The position numbers and the translations under genes are program-made. A stretch of 40,000 nt of DNA from Helicobacter sp. 12S02232-10 (lineage in GTDB: Bacteria > Campylobacterota > Campylobacteria > Campylobacterales > Helicobacteraceae). Shown in pieces: positions 23,509-30,941 of this stretch. The stretch lies in assembly GCF_002272895.1 (NCBI RefSeq), contig NZ_MLAQ01000001.1:109800-149799 (forward strand). The letters run 5' to 3'. Each line of letters opens with the position of its first letter. Position 1 is the stretch's first letter. Below the pieces are notes generated by a model that was not told where the DNA came from, searched no databases, and saw only the letters and a program-made list of their open reading frames with translations.

Positions 23509-24045
23509 ATGGACCGTATATTGAGTGTTATTTGGTTTTTATTTGGCTTGGCCATTCTTGCTTGTGGAATCATATCTGTTTTTACCCCCACAGAGACATT
23601 TTTAGCTCTGATGGTTCTGATCCCAATTATTTTAATTGCAAGTGGCATAGTAGGAATTTTTTATTACTTTAGAATTCGAGAATTTTCCAGTTCCCAATGG
23701 GTATTGGGAGATGGTTTGTTATCTTTGTTTTTTGGACTTATATTTACATTTGGTGGGGTTGAATTCACTTCTATTACAATGATTTATTTTGTGGCATTTT
23801 TGGCAATATTTAAAGGTATTTTGGGAATATCTTCTTCTTTTGTGTTAAAAAAATCAGGATTTTCTCAATGGTTTTGGTTATTTATTGTTTCAACAATTAA
23901 TATTTTCATCGGGATAATTTTTGCCATCAATCCAAGTATTGCATCTGTAACTATAGGTATCTTAGCCGGTATTTATTTCATATTTTTTGGTCTAATCTCC
24001 TTAATGGGATGGTGGGGATTGAAAAAATTCAAATCAATCCTTTAG
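23509..24045 (+). CDS. HdeD/DUF308-like membrane protein
   Basis: 178 aa, six hydrophobic helices in a repeated pattern, Gly-rich TM segments. Confidence 0.55.
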   Translation: MDRILSVIWFLFGLAILACGIISVFTPTETFLALMVLIPIILIASGIVGIFYYFRIREFSSSQWVLGDGLLSLFFGLIFTFGGVEFTSITMIYFVAFLAIFKGILGISSSFVLKKSGFSQWFWLFIVSTINIFIGIIFAINPSIASVTIGILAGIYFIFFGLISLMGWWGLKKFKSIL

Positions 24046-25112
24046 TGGTTGATATTATCCATAATACTGGCCGCTTCTAAAAGATGCTTCTTGTCAAAAT
24101 GCGTATAAATTCTACTTGTGTTTAAATCTGCGTGTCCTAAAGCTTCTTGGACCAATACTAAATCGTGTCTTTTTTGGTAGAGCAGGGTGGCAAAAGAATG
24201 TCTTAACATATGTGCTCCATTTTTTTCTTTTCGAATGCCGATACTGGCTAGTATTTGCTCAACTTGACGGTAAATATAAGCTTGTGTCAAAGGTCTTCCT
24301 CTTTGATTGCAAAATAATAACTCGTCTTCAACCTCGATCTGAGATCTTATCATCAGCCATTCTTCAAGCAAATTTCGAATATGGAGTGCTTTTATCATTA
24401 CTACTCGATATTTATTTCCTTTTCCTTTGATATTCAAAAGATATAAATTTTCTTCTAGGTTTATATCCTTTGCTTTAAGATGGATAGCCTCACTAACTCT
24501 TATGCCGGTGTAAATAATCATTTTTATGATCAAGCGGTTTCTTGCACGAATTTTTTCTGACATTTCAAATTTTTCAATCCCAGATAAAAATTTTTCCAAT
24601 TCATCCTGATTTAGATAGGTAGGGAGTTTTTGTCCTGATTTTCCCTTGACCCCGCTAATATTTTTGAGTTCTATATTATAAATATATGAATTTCCGTTTG
24701 CATCTTGATTTTGTTTATCAATATAATTAAAAAAGCCTAGCAAAGCAATACGATAATTTTTTTTGCTCGCCAAGCTCAATCCCCCTGTCTGCATTGCCAA
24801 AAACTCACTCAAGACCTCTTCATCAATTTCTTTCATTGAATTAAAATCTCTCAAATACTCATAAAGCTTGATAATAGGTTGGGCATAAGTATTAATGCCA
24901 ATGAGTCCTGCATTTCTAGCAATTTTACAAATCATCTCAAGTTCTTGAATATTTTTAGGTTTTTTTTGAAGTCTTTGGAGGCATTCTTGAATACATTTTT
25001 TATCCTTTACTTGGGTATTTGAAAGCGTTGTAAGTTTATAACGAATAAAACGAGATGACCAAAATAGTAAATCTTGTAAAAAACCTTCATCGGATTCTAA
25101 AACATAACGCAT
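24042..25112 (-). CDS. xerH: XerH-type tyrosine site-specific recombinase
   Basis: 356 aa, the long form typical of the epsilonproteobacterial single-Xer enzyme. Catalytic R (TGIRVSEA), HMLRHSFAT, LGHADLNTSRIYTH (R-H-R-H-Y set). AAGGA RBS. A difH-like site lies 31 bp upstream of its ATG. Confidence 0.8.
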   Translation of the reverse strand: MRYVLESDEGFLQDLLFWSSRFIRYKLTTLSNTQVKDKKCIQECLQRLQKKPKNIQELEMICKIARNAGLIGINTYAQPIIKLYEYLRDFNSMKEIDEEVLSEFLAMQTGGLSLASKKNYRIALLGFFNYIDKQNQDANGNSYIYNIELKNISGVKGKSGQKLPTYLNQDELEKFLSGIEKFEMSEKIRARNRLIIKMIIYTGIRVSEAIHLKAKDINLEENLYLLNIKGKGNKYRVVMIKALHIRNLLEEWLMIRSQIEVEDELLFCNQRGRPLTQAYIYRQVEQILASIGIRKEKNGAHMLRHSFATLLYQKRHDLVLVQEALGHADLNTSRIYTHFDKKHLLEAASIMDNINH

Positions 25113-25142
25113 CTATATCCTTTTATTTATTATAATAGTAAA

Positions 25143-25176
25143 TTTAGTTATGAAAACCATAATTTTCAAACTTTTT
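25143..25176 (+). promoter_or_regulatory. difH-like Xer recombination site (functional-looking; attL of the insertion)
   Basis: TTT-AGTTATGAAAA-CCATAA-TTTTCAAACTT-TTT: two imperfectly inverted 11-bp arms around a 6-bp centre. This matches my recollection of the Helicobacter difH arms (..AGTTATGAAAA..N6..TTTTCA..). Confidence 0.7.
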
Positions 25177-25205
25177 ATTTTATCTTGAAATTCCATAATA
25201 TCGAT

Positions 25206-25250
25206 GGTTTGAAAAATTATAGCACGAAAACTAGAGTTTTCATAACTAAA
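25206..25250 (-). promoter_or_regulatory. second, inverted dif-like site
   Basis: The minus strand reads TTTAGTTATGAAAA-CTCTAG-TTTTCGTG-CTATAAT-TTTTCAAACC. The 14-nt left arm is identical to that of site 1, the right arm is degenerate, and an extra right-arm copy lies 7 nt further on. Confidence 0.5.
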
Positions 25251-25303
25251 AAAAGCTTAAATTTAAAAAGTTTAATTTCTATTCTTAAGATTAAGTTCGA
25301 TAG

Positions 25304-26041
25304 ATGTTCTTAGAAAATTTAGATTTTTTGAGTTTAAAAATTCCTAAAGAAGCTTACACCCTCTTAAAAACTAACTTTGGAAGAAATTGCCTTATTTTGT
25401 ATGGTCTTATAAGGAATAGATGTGAATTTAATGGCTCCTATAAATTTACTACGTCTGAATTTTCTGAATTTTTTGAAATAGAACAAAGACAAATTAATCG
25501 ATGGCTAAATTTTTTAAAACAATCTAACCTAATCGACTTTAAAATCACTTCAAAGCACTATATATGCAGGATTGAAGGCATTACAGGCAAATACCCGCCC
25601 TACTCTAACCCTGTAAATGAAGCCTCAAACTCTGAAGCCTCTGAATCCTTACCCCCTGTTAAAAAATCCAAAAAGAAAAAAGAAAAAAGCATTTATTCAG
25701 AGCTTTCAGATGAAGAGCTAGATTTAATGGATGAAATTGAAACTTATCTCAGAGGGCAGAAGTTAAGATATCAAGATTTTGATATGGATTTTTTAAATGT
25801 AATTTATGAAGAAGAGAGTAACGAATTTCAAATTAGATTTTTACGAGAAGATGGCGGGATGGTATATTTTACAAGGCATAGAACGCATTTAAAGAAAAAT
25901 AACAGTGCTTCTCTTTTTCAGGCTTTTGACAATATGGCAATGAATTATCACCATTATCACGACACCATAGCACCAAAAAGAAGCGTGGGCGAGCTTGTCA
26001 ATAATGCCTACAAGCCCCTTAAAAAGGAGGTTAAAATGTAG
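25304..26041 (+). CDS. putative DNA-binding replication/regulatory protein (winged-HTH-like N-terminus)
   Basis: The N-terminal ~90 aa resemble a wHTH (TTSEFSEFFEIEQRQINRWLNFLKQSNLI), followed by an S/E/K-rich linker (KKSKKKKEK). First gene of the element. Function inferred. Confidence 0.4.
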   Translation: MFLENLDFLSLKIPKEAYTLLKTNFGRNCLILYGLIRNRCEFNGSYKFTTSEFSEFFEIEQRQINRWLNFLKQSNLIDFKITSKHYICRIEGITGKYPPYSNPVNEASNSEASESLPPVKKSKKKKEKSIYSELSDEELDLMDEIETYLRGQKLRYQDFDMDFLNVIYEEESNEFQIRFLREDGGMVYFTRHRTHLKKNNSASLFQAFDNMAMNYHHYHDTIAPKRSVGELVNNAYKPLKKEVKM

Positions 26042-26090
26042 GAAAGGACTGAAAAAATTATTGACACAAATTATATCAAAAGGATAAAAA

Positions 26091-26369
26091 ATGATTTTAA
26101 ATGTTGATGTTAATGTAACTCTATATGATGTTTTGGAAGATGAATACTGCTTTTCAACAGGGTTTCAAAAGGCGATAAATGATGTTTGTGAGTATTTTGA
26201 TAAACCAAACCCTTTTATAAAAGATGATAACAGCTTAGAAGCGGTTATAAAACAACTAAACGAGGTTATCAATGAAGTTTATTGCCTTCCATTACATTCT
26301 AAAAAAATGGTTTTAAAAAACCTGGATTCAAAAAAATTACAGGAGCTTTATAATGCACTCAATGATTAA
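26091..26369 (+). CDS. phage hypothetical protein (acidic, 92 aa)
   Basis: ATG preceded by AAAGGA. No motif recognised. Its 3' two-thirds are duplicated in the mini-element. Confidence 0.55.
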   Translation: MILNVDVNVTLYDVLEDEYCFSTGFQKAINDVCEYFDKPNPFIKDDNSLEAVIKQLNEVINEVYCLPLHSKKMVLKNLDSKKLQELYNALND

Positions 26370-26832
26370 AGGCGATTTTCCTAAAATGCTTGAAATACTG
26401 ATGAAAGAAGGAATTTTTAGCAACTACCTTAATGAAGCGATAACAAGTGACTCAAAGACTTCTTATAAGCTTCTTTTTATAGGTTTTACTGGGGGCTTTG
26501 ATTTTCCAAAAGAGAGTATTTGCAATGATGATTTATACAAACACGGATTAGTAGCTTTGTTTGCTTATAAAACCATCCATATAGTTTGCATCGGTTGCAC
26601 AAATATGACTTTTGAAAAGTTTAGAGAAATCATTTTACAACCAACTAAAAAAAGAGAAGCCACGATTAAAAGATATTTCAATGCATTCCATCAAAAACAC
26701 GATGACAAAGTTTTAAGAACTCAAGAGATACAAGCCTTAATTAAGCACCATAGCAAAATCTACCCTCAATTTTTAGAGCTTTTTGAAACCTTGATACAAT
26801 CGGATAAGCTAGATAAGTTAAATAATAATTGA
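26353..26832 (+). CDS. phage hypothetical protein (159 aa)
   Basis: Overlaps the upstream ORF by 17 nt and has a GGAG RBS. The C-terminal 96 codons are duplicated exactly at 35367..35657. Its last 30 nt form part of the inverted repeat. Confidence 0.6.
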   Translation: MHSMIKGDFPKMLEILMKEGIFSNYLNEAITSDSKTSYKLLFIGFTGGFDFPKESICNDDLYKHGLVALFAYKTIHIVCIGCTNMTFEKFREIILQPTKKREATIKRYFNAFHQKHDDKVLRTQEIQALIKHHSKIYPQFLELFETLIQSDKLDKLNNN

Positions 26833-27027
26833 CTTTTAAAGGAGTAATTAAGGAAAGTAGTGTATAATTTTATCGCCCCTCGTTCGTAGCGGGGGGCAAG
26901 ACCAAATTAAAGGACCTGCGATGTGCACCAAACATCGGAAAGCCTTTAAGAAATTATACATCAAATTTAAAATATTTGGTATAAAAATTATCTTAAAGGC
27001 TAAGAGGGGTTAATCCCCTCCATCCTT
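26803..27027. repeat. inverted-repeat module, left copy (IR-L)
   Basis: The reverse complement of 33815..34034 aligns with near-identical flanks and an unrelated ~50-bp core. Hairpins at 26875-26897, 26919-26937 and 27004-27020. Confidence 0.9.
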
Positions 27028-27045
27028 TAATATATGGTTTTTCTT
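26875..27045 (+). ncRNA. candidate structured RNA / late-operon leader (copy 1)
   Basis: Perfect TATAAT at 26863-26868 places a start near 26875, exactly at the first GC-rich hairpin (GCCCCTCG-N7-CGGGGGGC), and two further hairpins follow. The 3' end is uncertain, and the transcript may read through into 27154. Confidence 0.35.
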
Positions 27046-27153
27046 CCCCTCCCCTTTTCAAACCTTTATTTAATCATCTTCAGTATTATTTTTATATTTA
27101 TTTGTAATACTATGGTATTATTTTAATCATAAAAAATAATACTAGGATTTTGA

Positions 27154-27447
27154 ATGTCTGAAATTTATAACAATAAAGAAACTCAAAGCGATATCCAAAA
27201 AAACTCAATTGAATATCCTGAGATGAAAATAGACAGCAAGCTAAAAAAGGCACTCGAGATTAAAAAAGAGCTTGAAAAAGAAGAGGACCCCACTCAAAAT
27301 CAAGATTCAGAAGTGCAAACCCCCGCTTTTGAAGATAGTAAAGCCCCTTTTTTTATTTTAGGAGCTACATTTTTAGCCGTGGTAGCTTTTATTTTAAGTC
27401 CAAAAATTATTAAATTGTTTGAAAAAGGCAGAAGTAATGAGGAATGA
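27154..27447 (+). CDS. phage membrane protein (C-terminal TM)
   Basis: 97 aa with a charged N-terminal half and then a TM helix (FFILGATFLAVVAFIL). Confidence 0.6.
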   Translation: MSEIYNNKETQSDIQKNSIEYPEMKIDSKLKKALEIKKELEKEEDPTQNQDSEVQTPAFEDSKAPFFILGATFLAVVAFILSPKIIKLFEKGRSNEE

Positions 27448-28033
27448 AATGGAAAACGGGGCGATAAATGAAGAAAAAATCCCCGATTTTGTAAATTTCG
27501 ATAAAAATACAAGCGAATCAGCTAAAAAAGAGGATTCTAAGGGTTTTGAAGCATCAGGCTTTAAACTGTTTCAAATGAAGTTAGATGATTTAGCTACCTT
27601 AGCAAAGCCTTACGCCCCCTCAAAATCCCACGATACGCTTGTAAAAATGGGTAAAAAGAAACTCATTGCCATCATTCAAGCTAAATCAGATAATACACAA
27701 GAGGTTAATAATGTCTCAAATAATATTAATAATCTTGAAAACCTTGTTAAATCCTTCCTACAAGCCTGTGATGAATTTAAAAAAGAACGCGATAAAGAAC
27801 CCAATAACACCGCCCTTAAAGCAACGATTGAAAATAATGTGCATCCTGCTTTTGGGAATGGGGCTATTGCTTCCGTTGATTCTACTTTTGTGGCTAGGAT
27901 TATTGTTATATGCGGGCTTCTATACATTGCTACAGATTCCTTTTTTGGTATTAAAAACGTTGTTAATGCCTATAAAAATTATTTGTCAAAAAAGAAAGCT
28001 AGCAAAGCTAAAGAGAGTGCAAATGCAAGCTAA
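27419..28033 (+). CDS. phage membrane-anchored protein (coiled-coil plus C-terminal TM)
   Basis: The track start is a TTG. The ATG at 27437 (11-nt overlap with the upstream stop) is more likely. C-terminal TM (ARIIVICGLLYIATDSFFGI) and a K-rich tail. Confidence 0.6.
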   Translation: MKKAEVMRNEMENGAINEEKIPDFVNFDKNTSESAKKEDSKGFEASGFKLFQMKLDDLATLAKPYAPSKSHDTLVKMGKKKLIAIIQAKSDNTQEVNNVSNNINNLENLVKSFLQACDEFKKERDKEPNNTALKATIENNVHPAFGNGAIASVDSTFVARIIVICGLLYIATDSFFGIKNVVNAYKNYLSKKKASKAKESANAS

Positions 28034-28718
28034 ATTTAATACTTTTCATACAATTATGGGTAAAAAGGGCTATGGCAAAAGTTCGCTATGTGATATTTTG
28101 CTAATTTTGAATAACCGCCCTGCCTTGATTTTAGATACTACAAACGGCTTTCCACCCTTAGGAAAAAACCGCCTTTTTTTCGATGATATGGAAGAGCTAA
28201 ATCTTTATCTACAGCTACATTACAAAGAATTCATCAGCAAAAAACAGCAATTAATCCTCCAAACCAGAGACCCCGAGCAGTTTGAAGAGCTTTGCATTAC
28301 AGCTTATAAGTGTTCTAAAATTAGTTTGTTTATTGATGAAGTTGATTTTTATTGCGGGGCGAGTTTATCTAAAAAAAGTGCGTTCTACGATATTATCCAT
28401 ACAGGACGCCACCAAGAAATTGACCTTTATACAGCCAGCAGGCGACCAGCTAATATTAGCAGGGATTTGACCAGCCAGACCGATATTTTTTATCTCACAA
28501 TGACCACAGAAAACAGAGATTTTGACTACATTAAGCAAGCTTTTGGCGAAGATGTCAGCGATAAAATCAAGACTATCAAGCCATTTCATTTTTTAGTTAT
28601 CGACAAAACAAAAACGAATGCAGATGGCAGTAATCCCATCAACTTGCTTATTACTAAAAAAGAACAATTGGAATCAATTTATCGCTTAAATCTAAAAAAG
28701 GAGAGCAAAAATGATTGA
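28023..28718 (+). CDS. P-loop NTPase, putative genome-packaging ATPase (A32/P9-like; Zot-like not excluded)
   Basis: Walker A MGKKGYGKSS 10 aa from the ATG at 28023, Walker B SLFIDEVD, then HTGRHQEIDLYTASRRP. No TM segment. The 27666 track start only adds an out-of-context overlap with the previous gene. Confidence 0.7.
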   Translation: MQAKFNTFHTIMGKKGYGKSSLCDILLILNNRPALILDTTNGFPPLGKNRLFFDDMEELNLYLQLHYKEFISKKQQLILQTRDPEQFEELCITAYKCSKISLFIDEVDFYCGASLSKKSAFYDIIHTGRHQEIDLYTASRRPANISRDLTSQTDIFYLTMTTENRDFDYIKQAFGEDVSDKIKTIKPFHFLVIDKTKTNADGSNPINLLITKKEQLESIYRLNLKKESKND

Positions 28719-28800
28719 TAAAAAACTTGTGTTATCTACCATAGCAGGGCTTATTATCGGGCGTTTGATTGGGAAATATATCCCATCTTTGAAAGTTTAA
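28711..28800 (+). CDS. 29-aa single-TM peptide
   Basis: AGGAG RBS, ATG overlapping the ATPase stop (ATGATTGA). MIDKKLVLSTIAGLIIGRLIGKYIPSLKV. Below the ORF-track length cutoff, found by hand. Confidence 0.5.
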   Translation: MIDKKLVLSTIAGLIIGRLIGKYIPSLKV

Positions 28801-28816
28801 AAAAAAAGGAAAAAAT

Positions 28817-28912
28817 ATGAAGACTTATATTATCAATGGATTCGTTGTTGCAGTCGTTGCAATATTGTTTAACAAGCTATTGGCGCCTTTAATGGCTAAA
28901 TTTGGATTTTAA
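28817..28912 (+). CDS. 31-aa single-TM peptide
   Basis: AAGGA RBS. MKTYIINGFVVAVVAILFNKLLAPLMAKFGF. Found by hand. Confidence 0.5.
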   Translation: MKTYIINGFVVAVVAILFNKLLAPLMAKFGF

Positions 28913-28926
28913 TAAAAGGATAAGTT

Positions 28927-29901
28927 ATGCCAACCAAAAAACCATTATTCATTCCTCAACCAGCTACAAACCTAGTTTTGGGAGGTTCGAGCAATACTAT
29001 CAGTCTCAATCGCGGTTATACCGTGGATATGCTTCAAGGCGAAATTTATTTTGATTATACCTGTGAAAGCGGAGCAAGCTTTACCCCCGAGCATTTTTGG
29101 AATTCCATTAGCAATTTTGTTATCTTAGGAGATTCTAGCACCTACTACAAAAATCAAAGCTTTAGAAGCCTCAAAGCACAAGGCTATCGTATTGCAGGTA
29201 CAGAAATCAATACAGACCCTGAAAGTACAGCAGGAAATCACACTTACACCTTAAGATTTTTTATCCCATTAGGACTTTTTGGATTTAGCAATATTTCAGA
29301 TGCAGGGATAGAGAGTTCAATGTTTCAAAGCTTGCAAATAACATTCAATTCAGCAAGTGATAAAGATGTAGGCAGTGGTATTAAAATCAATTCAGGGCAA
29401 ATCAGGCTTTGGGAGTTTTCAGAACAACGTGTAGCAGGAACTTACACCGATAGCAGTGGCAAGCAGGTAAGCGGGCTTAGAAACCCTTTAAATTATTACC
29501 AAGAAACCAAAATAGAGACCATTAAAAGCAGTGGCACCGGCTACACAATCCAGCTACCCCCTTATCAATGGTATATAGGATTCCAGCTTGACACTAGGTT
29601 AAAAGATGGCAGTTTGGATAATTCTGTGATTAAAAATGTGAAATTCAAACAAAACCAGGATTTATTATTGAATCTACCTGTAGAAGTTATCAAAACTGAA
29701 AATCAAAGAAGATTTAGACTTGATAGGAGTTATCTCAATGGAAGTTTTTATGTTGATTTTAGTCAAATGGGACGTGTGAAGCATTCTGAAATTTTAAAAA
29801 CCTTTAATAACCCTACCTTAGAGTTAGATACCGATTTAGGAAGCAACTCAGAGGCTTATTTAGAAATCACTATGGGAATGTTAAAAGATTGGGGCGTGTA
29901 A
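28927..29901 (+). CDS. candidate major capsid protein (jelly-roll type)
   Basis: 324 aa, no TM, rich in short beta-like segments with aromatic/Gly turns. It is the largest soluble protein beside the ATPase and has an AAAGGA RBS. The fold is not verifiable by eye. Confidence 0.5.
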   Translation: MPTKKPLFIPQPATNLVLGGSSNTISLNRGYTVDMLQGEIYFDYTCESGASFTPEHFWNSISNFVILGDSSTYYKNQSFRSLKAQGYRIAGTEINTDPESTAGNHTYTLRFFIPLGLFGFSNISDAGIESSMFQSLQITFNSASDKDVGSGIKINSGQIRLWEFSEQRVAGTYTDSSGKQVSGLRNPLNYYQETKIETIKSSGTGYTIQLPPYQWYIGFQLDTRLKDGSLDNSVIKNVKFKQNQDLLLNLPVEVIKTENQRRFRLDRSYLNGSFYVDFSQMGRVKHSEILKTFNNPTLELDTDLGSNSEAYLEITMGMLKDWGV

Positions 29902-29902
29902 G

Positions 29903-30163
29903 ATGGCACTAGATAGCGGATTTTTTGAAAATATCAGTAGTTCGCTTGGAAAAATCAGCGATATCACAGGTAAGGTAACTGAAGCCATTAGCAATAAAAA
30001 TCCTAAACAAGCAGAGCAGGCAAGAGCGGAGGCGATGGCACAAAAAACAGGGGTTAAGACCCCTTTTATGATGGGTTCAACGAATAAAATGCTTTTAATT
30101 GCAGGCGGGGCGGGTTTATTGTTATTTGCTTTTTTGTTTTTAGGTAAAAAACGCAGGAGGTAG
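29903..30163 (+). CDS. virion/membrane protein, C-terminal TM plus basic tail
   Basis: 86 aa ending LLIAGGAGLLLFAFLFLGKKRRR. Starts 1 nt after the capsid-gene stop. Confidence 0.6.
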   Translation: MALDSGFFENISSSLGKISDITGKVTEAISNKNPKQAEQARAEAMAQKTGVKTPFMMGSTNKMLLIAGGAGLLLFAFLFLGKKRRR

Positions 30164-30166
30164 TTA

Positions 30167-30610
30167 ATGGGAAGCGGAGGACGCGGGGGCGATAATACAA
30201 ATAGCACCACAAATAATAATTATAATTTTTCACAAGCTTTAACAGGTAATAATCTAAGTAATTTTTTAAACTTAGGTACCTTTACTTATGGAAATCACAA
30301 CGTATCCACCCCGTCGTTATCTAATTCAAACTATTCCTCTTTAGGTACTTCGAACAAAAGCGATAATGATAACACTCAAAAATCTGATACAGGTTCAGGA
30401 GGAGCAGGCGGGGGCTTTAGTGCCGCACTTGATTTTGCAGCTAGTGCCGCAATTACAGGCGAAGGCGATGCTAAAAGTGGCGATGCGACCAAAGAAGGCG
30501 GAGGAGCTACCTATACACCCCCACCAAAGAATAATCAACAGCTTTTAATCTTTGGAGGCTTAGCAGTTGGTAGCCTTGTTCTTTTTAATTTATTGAATAA
30601 AAAAAGGTAG
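30167..30610 (+). CDS. low-complexity N/S/G-rich membrane-anchored protein
   Basis: 147 aa with an N/S/T/G-rich body (GSGGAGGG) and a C-terminal TM plus basic tail (LLIFGGLAVGSLVLFNLLNKKR). Confidence 0.6.
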   Translation: MGSGGRGGDNTNSTTNNNYNFSQALTGNNLSNFLNLGTFTYGNHNVSTPSLSNSNYSSLGTSNKSDNDNTQKSDTGSGGAGGGFSAALDFAASAAITGEGDAKSGDATKEGGGATYTPPPKNNQQLLIFGGLAVGSLVLFNLLNKKR

Positions 30611-30614
30611 TTCA

Positions 30615-30941
30615 ATGAATGAGAAACCAAATATCACATTAGCACAAGGCGCAGCCGCCAGTGATAACTCTGTAAGTCTTGGAAACATCGGACAAATAGG
30701 AAACTCTGTGAGTGGCTTCAGTGGGGAGGATGTCCAAGGGATTTTAAACCAGGCAGGGAGTGCTTTGATGGGTTCGCTTTCTCTTGTAATGGGAGAGAAC
30801 GCACAAAACACAGCTAGAATCTTGCAATCTACCAAAACCCCTACCCCAAATAATCCCAGTCCATTCGATTTAAAAACCATTTTTATCGGAGTAGGAATTA
30901 TCGCAGGAGCATACTTTTTAAGCAAAAAAAGGATTTTTTAA
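30615..30941 (+). CDS. membrane-anchored protein, C-terminal TM plus basic tail
   Basis: 108 aa ending IFIGVGIIAGAYFLSKKRIF. Confidence 0.6.
   Translation: MNEKPNITLAQGAAASDNSVSLGNIGQIGNSVSGFSGEDVQGILNQAGSALMGSLSLVMGENAQNTARILQSTKTPTPNNPSPFDLKTIFIGVGIIAGAYFLSKKRIF

Follow-up and report, generated by a model that had tools for sequence, protein, structure and literature searches.

A tailless double jelly-roll prophage and a relic copy in tandem at difH of Helicobacter sp. 12S02232-10: a candidate mobile element exploiting XerH

CTX-phi uses the host recombinases XerCD and an attachment site (attP) of folded single-stranded DNA (ssDNA) formed from two inverted dif-like sites, and its prophages occur in tandem arrays. 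Sites of the cer and psi type resolve plasmid multimers. Integrative mobile elements that exploit Xer (IMEXs) were listed only for XerCD and XerL in a 2017 review (PMC5357621) and in a 2022 paper on XerL (PMC9765430), the XerCD examples being CTX-phi, VGJ-phi, TLC-phi and the gonococcal genetic island (GGI) (PMC5357621). In the literature covered by our full-text searches, no element exploiting the XerH/difH system of Helicobacter and Campylobacter was described, in agreement with an earlier note on the present DNA, whose author knew of none. This DNA (hereafter the window) comprises 40,000 nt of Helicobacter sp. 12S02232-10 (contig NZ_MLAQ01000001.1, positions 109,800 to 149,799), and for the locus studied within it the most fitting description is a tandem array of IMEXs at difH, consisting of an intact tailless double jelly-roll (DJR) prophage and the relic of a second copy. 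Judging from its sequence, this phage is a good candidate, and the first, for a mobile element whose integration relies on the single XerH recombinase of its host.

Among the described systems, LME-1 of Legionella pneumophila (PMC9765430) resembles the phage in lacking an integrase, carrying a dif mimic and integrating at the chromosomal dif of a Xer system with a single recombinase. Both elements have one wild-type dif and one modified dif with few substitutions, which in LME-1 stabilise the integrated state. LME-1 differs in its use of XerL rather than XerH, in the distance between dif and the recombinase gene (> 400 kb in Legionella, 31 bp in the window) and in having been tested experimentally, whereas the phage is known here from sequence; the cargo here is a tailless DJR phage. 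TLC-phi and the GGI (PMC5357621) share with the phage attP a perfect centre and one perfect arm next to a degraded one, namely the XerD arm in these elements and the XerD-equivalent left arm in the phage (Bebel et al. 2016), and successive elements likewise stack at the regenerated dif. However, two recombinases map to the arm asymmetry in TLC-phi and the GGI, whereas a single protein would read both arms here. No XafT-like activator was identified for the phage. NO16-like ('Asemoviridae') tailless vibriophages and PM2-like corticoviral elements (PMC9966536, PMC1950889) are, like the phage, tailless DJR elements of approximately 10 kb, and the use of host Xer was proposed for NO16 prophages, which have dif-like sites (PMC9966536). 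In contrast to the phage, they are associated with XerCD and the 28-bp Vibrio dif, and they show no sequence relationship to it.

The site in question (site 1, difH/attL) was read on the + strand at 25143-25176 as TTTAGTTATGAAAA-CCATAA-TTTTCAAACTTTTT. With arms defined as in PMC5357621 and PMC5241119, it consists of a chromosomal left arm (AGTTATGAAAA, 25146-25156), the centre CCATAA (25157-25162) and a right arm (TTTTCAAACTT, 25163-25173), and from the right arm onward it is contiguous with phage DNA. This arrangement fits the difH consensus of an 11-bp left arm, a 6-bp centre and a 10-bp right arm. The earlier note had placed a difH-like sequence at exactly these positions, 31 bp from xerH, and the alignment that it proposed with published H. 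pylori difH showed both arms to be identical (PMC3325230 Tables 1-2); CCATAA is the centre listed for Wolinella (PMC3325230). Site 1 was also identical over 33 nt to difH of two sister species, Helicobacter sp. 11S02596-1 (L006) and Helicobacter sp. 12S02634-8 (L008), which at the sequence level bears out the suggestion that a canonical-looking dif was regenerated on the xerH-proximal side. By these comparisons, site 1 is a canonical difH. A scan of the window for the 28-nt core pattern AGTTATGAAAA-N6-TTTTCAAACTT, allowing up to three mismatches and using 100 shuffles as the control, returned two matches, at 25146-25173 (0 mismatches) and 35100-35127 (two mismatches). The shuffles gave an expectation of 0.02 matches, and none of the 100 contained two.

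The neighbouring gene (24042-25112, - strand) encodes a 356-aa protein that had been noted as a tyrosine recombinase with the R-H-R-H-Y set. Consistent with this, the protein aligned end to end with H. pylori XerH (PDB 5JJV/5JK0; E 1.3e-141, aligned residues 2-352), and R205, H301, R304, H327 and Y336 were all kept in the alignment to 5JJV. Its identity was 64% to H. pylori XerH proteins and 73-78% to orthologues at the same locus in phage-free sister species. The NCBIfam models for XerC, XerD and XerS scored below cut-off, as expected because XerH is a separate family. On the strength of this orthology, the gene is taken as a true xerH encoding the single Xer tyrosine recombinase of the host. 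In a XerH scan of species-representative genomes, only Arcobacteraceae gave matches (55-58% identity). Since the start codon is located at 25112-25110 on the - strand, site 1 starts 31 bp upstream of xerH. The corresponding distance was 26-165 bp in L006, L008, Helicobacter sp. 11S03491-1 (L029) and two metagenome-assembled Helicobacter loci (L030 and L031). The latter two have difH at 26 bp from xerH and, like the window, its left arm on the proximal side; the 31-bp spacing is therefore native.

Sister loci were reached via XerH protein homologues and contig comparison. The window shares with L006 and L008 the genes for PEP synthase, a GNAT acetyltransferase, DUF308 and XerH on one side and, on the other flank, aspB, a 332-334-aa gene and a gene for a pterin-binding enzyme. 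The aspB-like aminotransferase gene (36201-37403, - strand; NCBIfam aspartate aminotransferase, E 2.5e-129) represents the conserved chromosomal flank and is alignable to both sister species from 36210 on. L006 and L008 have one difH copy each at this locus, followed by gaps of 175 and 410 bp, respectively, between difH and aspB; xerH and aspB are 11,089 bp apart in the window. Homology across species ends at 25129 on the xerH side and restarts at 36210 in aspB, with the difH core matching in between. The similarity of the L006 and L008 spacers to the inserted DNA did not exceed that of shuffle controls. A GC-rich hairpin in the L006 spacer was considered as a remnant of the phage inverted repeat and rejected, since its local alignment was no better than those of shuffles; both sites were therefore taken as truly empty. 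The empty-site comparison suggested in the earlier note accordingly showed aspB, 0.2-0.4 kb of spacer, difH and xerH in both species, and its claim that the accessory DNA starts at the difH site also held, as the insertion begins at the difH core. The approximately 11 kb between difH and aspB is, from this synteny, an insertion at difH. It is hardly credible that this DNA is instead ancestral and deleted in relatives, or that it is a repeat assembly artefact. The genome is indeed a draft, and tandem repeats are prone to mis-assembly, but the phage DNA is absent from four related loci (L006, L008, L030 and L031), the L029 locus carries different DNA, the content is viral and the locus is internal to a 311,820-bp contig. 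Moreover, the two copies differ by many deletions and therefore do not represent a collapsed or duplicated repeat.

The inserted DNA comprises a prophage of 9,954 bp, followed by an approximately 1-kb relic of a second copy. The two are separated by an attP-like junction (site 2; 35099-35144, + strand; TACTTACGAAAA-CCATAA-TTTTCAAACTT-TTTATTTTATCTTGAAA), which corresponds to the second dif-like site that had been reported near 35097. The core of site 2 (35100-35127), ACTTACGAAAA-CCATAA-TTTTCAAACTT, has two mismatches in 22 arm positions and a centre matching at 6/6 positions. The whole site repeats site 1 (25145-25190) with 96% identity over 46 nt, at a start-to-start spacing of 9,954 bp. The difference is confined to two positions of the left arm (TTTAGTTATGAAAA in site 1 versus ATACTTACGAAAA in site 2), and from GAAAA onward the two sites are identical over approximately 40 nt, covering the centre, the right arm and 17 further bases. 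Site 1 thus joins a chromosomal left arm to phage DNA and site 2 a phage left arm to phage DNA, the DNA beyond site 2 being assigned to the phage because it belongs to the degraded second copy (35145-36172, + strand). This relic is a mosaic of pieces of 26052-27373 and 33725-34075, 80-100% identical, without rep, the virion genes and the 34076-35098 segment; its first deletion joins two TGAAA microhomologies, and its end lies 28 bp short of the aspB stop codon. The change at the core from host sequence to phage sequence is read as the signature of a crossover inside the core.

The viral nature of the insert, also claimed earlier, was supported by its capsid, packaging and lysis genes, all of which lie within 25177-35098. 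The 324-aa product of the gene at 28927-29901 (+ strand) had two close homologues among 5.8 billion proteins and approximately 18 remote homologues among 1.84 billion representatives, and its sequence profile weakly matched the STIV coat protein (E 0.006). An AlphaFold2 model built from an 18-sequence alignment (pLDDT 82.6, pTM 0.80) was compared by Foldseek and matched P3 of PRD1/PR772 (E 4e-19, TM 0.70-0.74), the STIV major capsid protein (TM 0.74, rmsd 3.6) and P2 of PM2 (E 1e-12). The modelled fold identifies it as a DJR major capsid protein, structurally nearest to those of PRD1 and STIV and not to that of PM2. Immediately upstream, a gene at 28023-28718 (+ strand), whose start was set by comparison with phage relatives, encodes a genome-packaging ATPase of the FtsK-HerA/B204 type, which matched B204 of STIV2 (PDB 4KFR, E 7.9e-8) and STIV (PDB 4R2H, E 3.5e-7) as well as PHROG 2666 (E 1e-22); among GenBank phages, STIV2 was its sole match. 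A 126-aa holin is encoded at 33305-33685 (+ strand; PHROG 3427, E 6.5e-13). Two metagenomic contigs, L009 (7,184 bp) and L010 (6,774 bp), represent close phage relatives and contain the entire structural module in unchanged order, with identities of 76-81% for the capsid protein and ATPase and 68-69% for the holin. Given the capsid, ATPase, holin and shared structural module, the element is a tailless DJR phage of approximately 10 kb, and the virus is real and under selection.

The absence of a recombinase gene of its own, another of the earlier claims, was also upheld. All open reading frames (ORFs) of at least 40 aa within 25.2-36.2 kb were searched against Pfam and PHROGs, and no recombinase or transposase family was found, the sensitivity of profiles being limited on orphan proteins; tblastn with XerH detected no second tyrosine recombinase in the window. 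An unrecognised phage enzyme, for instance the 92-, 159-, 204- or 245-aa protein, could in principle target difH and leave XerH a bystander. For several early genes no family could be detected, Rep lacks any homologue, and a distant relative (L035) has a recombinase of its own (Resolvase, E 1.5e-35). We nevertheless regard such an enzyme as very improbable, since signatures of tyrosine and serine recombinases and of DDE and HUH enzymes were absent from all ORFs searched, attP copies the XerH arms and the host-specific centre, which a foreign enzyme would not need, and the same mimic is borne by microviruses whose 4.7-kb genomes are too small to accommodate an integrase (see below).

Integration by host XerH is, in our assessment, quite probable. 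A temperate tailless DJR phage with a circular genome of 9,954 bp would carry a mimic of the host difH as its attP, and host XerH would have recombined this attP with the chromosomal difH inside or beside the shared 6-bp centre CCATAA. On the xerH side, the left arm of the chromosome and the right arm of the phage would together give a perfect difH, so that dimer resolution could be preserved, and the opposite end would have received the weakened phage left arm. In the simplest history, a second integration into the regenerated difH would then have created a tandem array, in which the older, distal copy may have decayed to the 1-kb relic with loss of its attR. Sites 1 and 2 are directly repeated and have the same centre, so that XerH could excise the intact copy; the product of recombination between them would be a circle of 9,954 bp with the sequence of site 2. 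The earlier interpretation of the locus as a candidate XerH-exploiting IMEX is supported by the insertion, the virus, the lack of a recombinase, the hybrid sites and the empty sites, from which we infer catalysis by XerH, the order of events and excision.

The sequence of attP points to the same enzyme. The centre is CCATAA in the phage sites of the window and in difH of L006, L008, L030 and L031 and CTATAA in L029; other centres include CTGCAC in H. pylori and CTATAC in H. hepaticus (PMC3325230). As the mimic copies both the XerH arms and this clade-specific centre, XerH is the likely enzyme. Of the two difH arms, the left has the tighter binding and the earlier cleavage; within it, T4 is critical and positions 7-11 are read sequence-specifically, and the left-arm subunit corresponds to XerD (Bebel et al. 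2016, PMC5241119). The phage left arm, according to our reading of the numbering of Bebel et al., has kept T4 and changed G3 to C and T7 to C. The G3C change also occurs in the native difH of L029.

Plasmids of Helicobacter and Campylobacter also bear difH-like sites. A 27.8-kb H. cinaedi plasmid has the site TTTAGTTATGAAAA-TAAAAA-TTTTCAAACTT (NZ_AP025198.1, 26215-26245, i.e., L037:3001-3031; also in NZ_CP063082.1), which overlaps an RHH gene at its end and is located downstream of a gene for a ParA-like ATPase. This site and those of the cer/psi type resemble the phage attP in their location on extrachromosomal DNA, with XerH-type arms in the case of H. cinaedi. The H. cinaedi arms are perfect, but the centre TAAAAA differs from the chromosomal CTATAC, and the plasmid site, unlike that of the phage, is not integrated. 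It is probably a multimer-resolution site for XerH that would avoid chromosomal integration. By the same logic, the phage mimic might mainly resolve multimers of a plasmid-like episomal prophage, with integration being incidental or RecA-mediated via the approximately 40 bp of shared sequence, and the DnaD-like initiator of the phage would be compatible with plasmid-type replication. We consider this unlikely. The plasmid centre is foreign, whereas the phage centre equals that of the host at 6/6 positions, as integration needs and plasmids seem to avoid, and for this reason the host-matched centre is read as a mark of integrative use. The two successive copies at one site point to repeated, efficient integration, and it is exactly at the core that host sequence gives way to phage sequence.

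Several observations nonetheless weigh against integration by host XerH. In H. pylori, XerH/difH recombination needs FtsK (PMC3325230), which makes access of a phage circle to this reaction a question. The outer attR that the model expects is absent, leaving one of its junctions missing. The contigs L009 and L010 break in the inverted repeat and do not include the att region, and the phage is known from a single host genome. The wider DJR lineage is not uniformly Xer-reliant, because L035 encodes a serine recombinase. Finally, the XerH model does not account for a split dif at 25206-25250.

This inverted, split dif-like site (25206-25250, - strand; TTTAGTTATGAAAAC[TCTAGTTTTCGTGC]TATAATTTTTCAAACC) has a perfect left arm that is separated by 14 nt from a CTATAA-like centre and the right arm after it. 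It lies 58 nt from site 1 in the inverse orientation and is not present in the relic copy. Pairing with site 1 would allow a long, imperfect hairpin in ssDNA (dG -15.9, z -3.2), and pairing with the junction reconstructed for the free phage gave a weak one (z -1.5). The arrangement recalls CTX-phi in that two inverted dif-like sequences lie < 100 bp apart by the attachment site and the prophage is part of a tandem array. In contrast to CTX-phi, the packaging ATPase is of the double-stranded DNA type, which argues against an ssDNA genome, and the hairpin is strong in the integrated form only. A CTX-like folded ssDNA attP was rejected, as the phage-form hairpin was no better than shuffles. The phage centre is, unlike that of CTX-phi, fully homologous to the host centre, and thus a complete double-strand exchange is possible. 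The split site may be an accessory XerH-binding element or a scar.

When difH sequences were compared with GenBank phages by BLAST, five microviruses of approximately 4.7 kb from mammal faeces were matched (E values 8e-7 and 3e-5). The difH mimics are located at L036:3376-3403 in a dog-faeces microvirus (MG945779.1), at L040:852-873 in a fox-faeces microvirus (MG945846.1) and at L038:3473-3494 (PQ006368.1), L039:3411-3432 and L041:3484-3505 in the remaining three, the bajarodmic viruses 264, 297 and 948 from the rodent Peromyscus fraterculus. A single intergenic site is present in each virus; its right arm TTTTCAAACTT is perfect and runs into a stretch of T, its centre is a natural one for difH (CTATAC or CTATAA) and its left arm is degenerate. 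The dog, fox and rodent viruses differ in the pair of genes between which the site lies. These sequence features make the five microviruses candidate XerH users of Helicobacter or Campylobacter. A scan of IMG/VR with a microvirus capsid protein revealed no integrated copies. Separately, 18 matches to the difH pattern in IMG/VR were rejected as chance matches, having no canonical left arm and being unrelated to the phage.

It is a tentative idea, possible rather than probable, that XerH exploitation is general among unrelated viruses of Helicobacter and Campylobacter, with the DJR phage and at least five gut microviruses sharing one attP design. If so, this design would consist of a perfect right arm, a host-matched centre and a degraded left arm, i.e., the arm of high affinity that is cleaved first. 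Such a design might imply a non-canonical order of events in a single-recombinase system, either right-arm-first or activator-dependent and FtsK-independent, and directionality could in that case be set by the split inverted difH beside attP, acting as an accessory element bound by XerH. In C. concisus and C. curvus, difH is 59-68 kb from xerH, and in A. butzleri 66 bp (PMC2731167 Table 2); the 59-68 kb gaps could hide large elements inserted at difH.

With this candidate, exploitation by IMEXs would extend to XerH/difH in Helicobacter and Campylobacter, and the microvirus sites hint that XerH exploitation is more widespread. Two high-resolution structures of XerH-difH synaptic complexes are available, together with arm-specific binding and cleavage data (Bebel et al. 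2016, PMC5241119), and against these structures the natural attP indicates which contacts a parasite weakens (left-arm G3 and T7, with T4 kept). It thereby gives direct access to two questions, namely in which order a single protein exchanges the strands and by what means an element might escape FtsK control. The phage also represents an additional tailless DJR lineage for Helicobacter, missed by current prophage finders, and genetic tools for these pathogens could use difH as a natural site of marker-free integration.

Among the remaining phage genes, the first (25304-26041, + strand) encodes a 245-aa putative replication initiator or DnaD-like helicase loader (PHROG 186, E 1.6e-5; PHROG 19658, E 4e-4), for which no homologue other than itself was found among the 5.8 billion proteins. 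It is followed by two small genes of 92 and 159 aa (26091-26832, + strand), parts of both of which are kept in the relic. The rest of the virion genes and the lysis module (29903-33192, + strand) follow the gene order of L009 and L010 and include small proteins of 86, 147, 108, 81 and 130 aa with C-terminal hydrophobic anchors and a 178-aa PHROG 3108 protein. With regard to an internal membrane bearing small virion membrane proteins, as in tailless DJR phages, several small proteins encoded 3' of the capsid gene have a hydrophobic stretch and then basic residues at their C-termini and had no family match. In the 363-aa protein (30941-32032), the first 136-145 residues align with L009 and L010 at 63-65% identity and the remainder is unalignable; it is likely a host-recognition spike with an exchangeable distal domain. 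The stretch at 33690-34690 is otherwise free of ORFs over approximately 1 kb. Within it, at 34496-34601, a tandem pair of 32-nt repeats and a pair of 27-nt palindromes overlap, and downstream of them lies a 65-aa gene (34695-34892), the product of which had no family match. The whole region (34496-34892, + strand) contains operator- or iteron-like repeats and looks like an operator or origin with a small regulator, the 65-aa product being a possible regulator.

Inverted repeats of approximately 200 bp bracket the 7-kb structural module, with the left arm at 26803-27017 and the right arm at 33824-34034. They pair in two segments, I1 (102 nt, 94% complementarity) and I2 (88 nt, 77%), and are more alike within than between genomes, which may reflect an invertible segment or gene conversion. 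The contigs L009 and L010 each end in 30-nt mutually complementary termini at the place equivalent to the window repeat, and the repeat is therefore conserved in this phage lineage.

Neither the capsid protein nor the ATPase had a match in IMG/VR or the JGI metagenomes, and tblastn of the capsid protein against GenBank phages was likewise negative. Remote capsid relatives, at 21-23% identity, were an Aquificota prophage with no integrase in its visible part (L034:7158-15500) and a 9.3-kb sediment contig (L035:6067-6741, 23%), which carries the serine recombinase mentioned above. Integration modules thus vary across this DJR group, as they do among corticoviral elements (PMC1950889).

On the host side, no tRNA genes were present in the window and no Rfam families were found. 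GC skew across the 40-kb window tracks gene orientation and is therefore uninformative on the replication terminus. The interval between aspB and difH looks like a hotspot for foreign DNA. In L029 (L029:5217-9893), it contains a restriction-modification cassette of approximately 4.4 kb with a D12-class methyltransferase and an AlwI-type endonuclease. A second dif flanking this cassette was considered and rejected, since the sole match was a lone perfect left-arm 11-mer inside the methyltransferase gene, probably a chance match. In L030 (L030:9899-11103) and L031 (L031:9887-11092), xerH and difH are inverted together with respect to the same flanking genes, with loss of DUF308, and difH alone is inverted relative to xerH in L008 (L008:9838-9870). 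From these arrangements, the xerH-difH module or its site flips between species.

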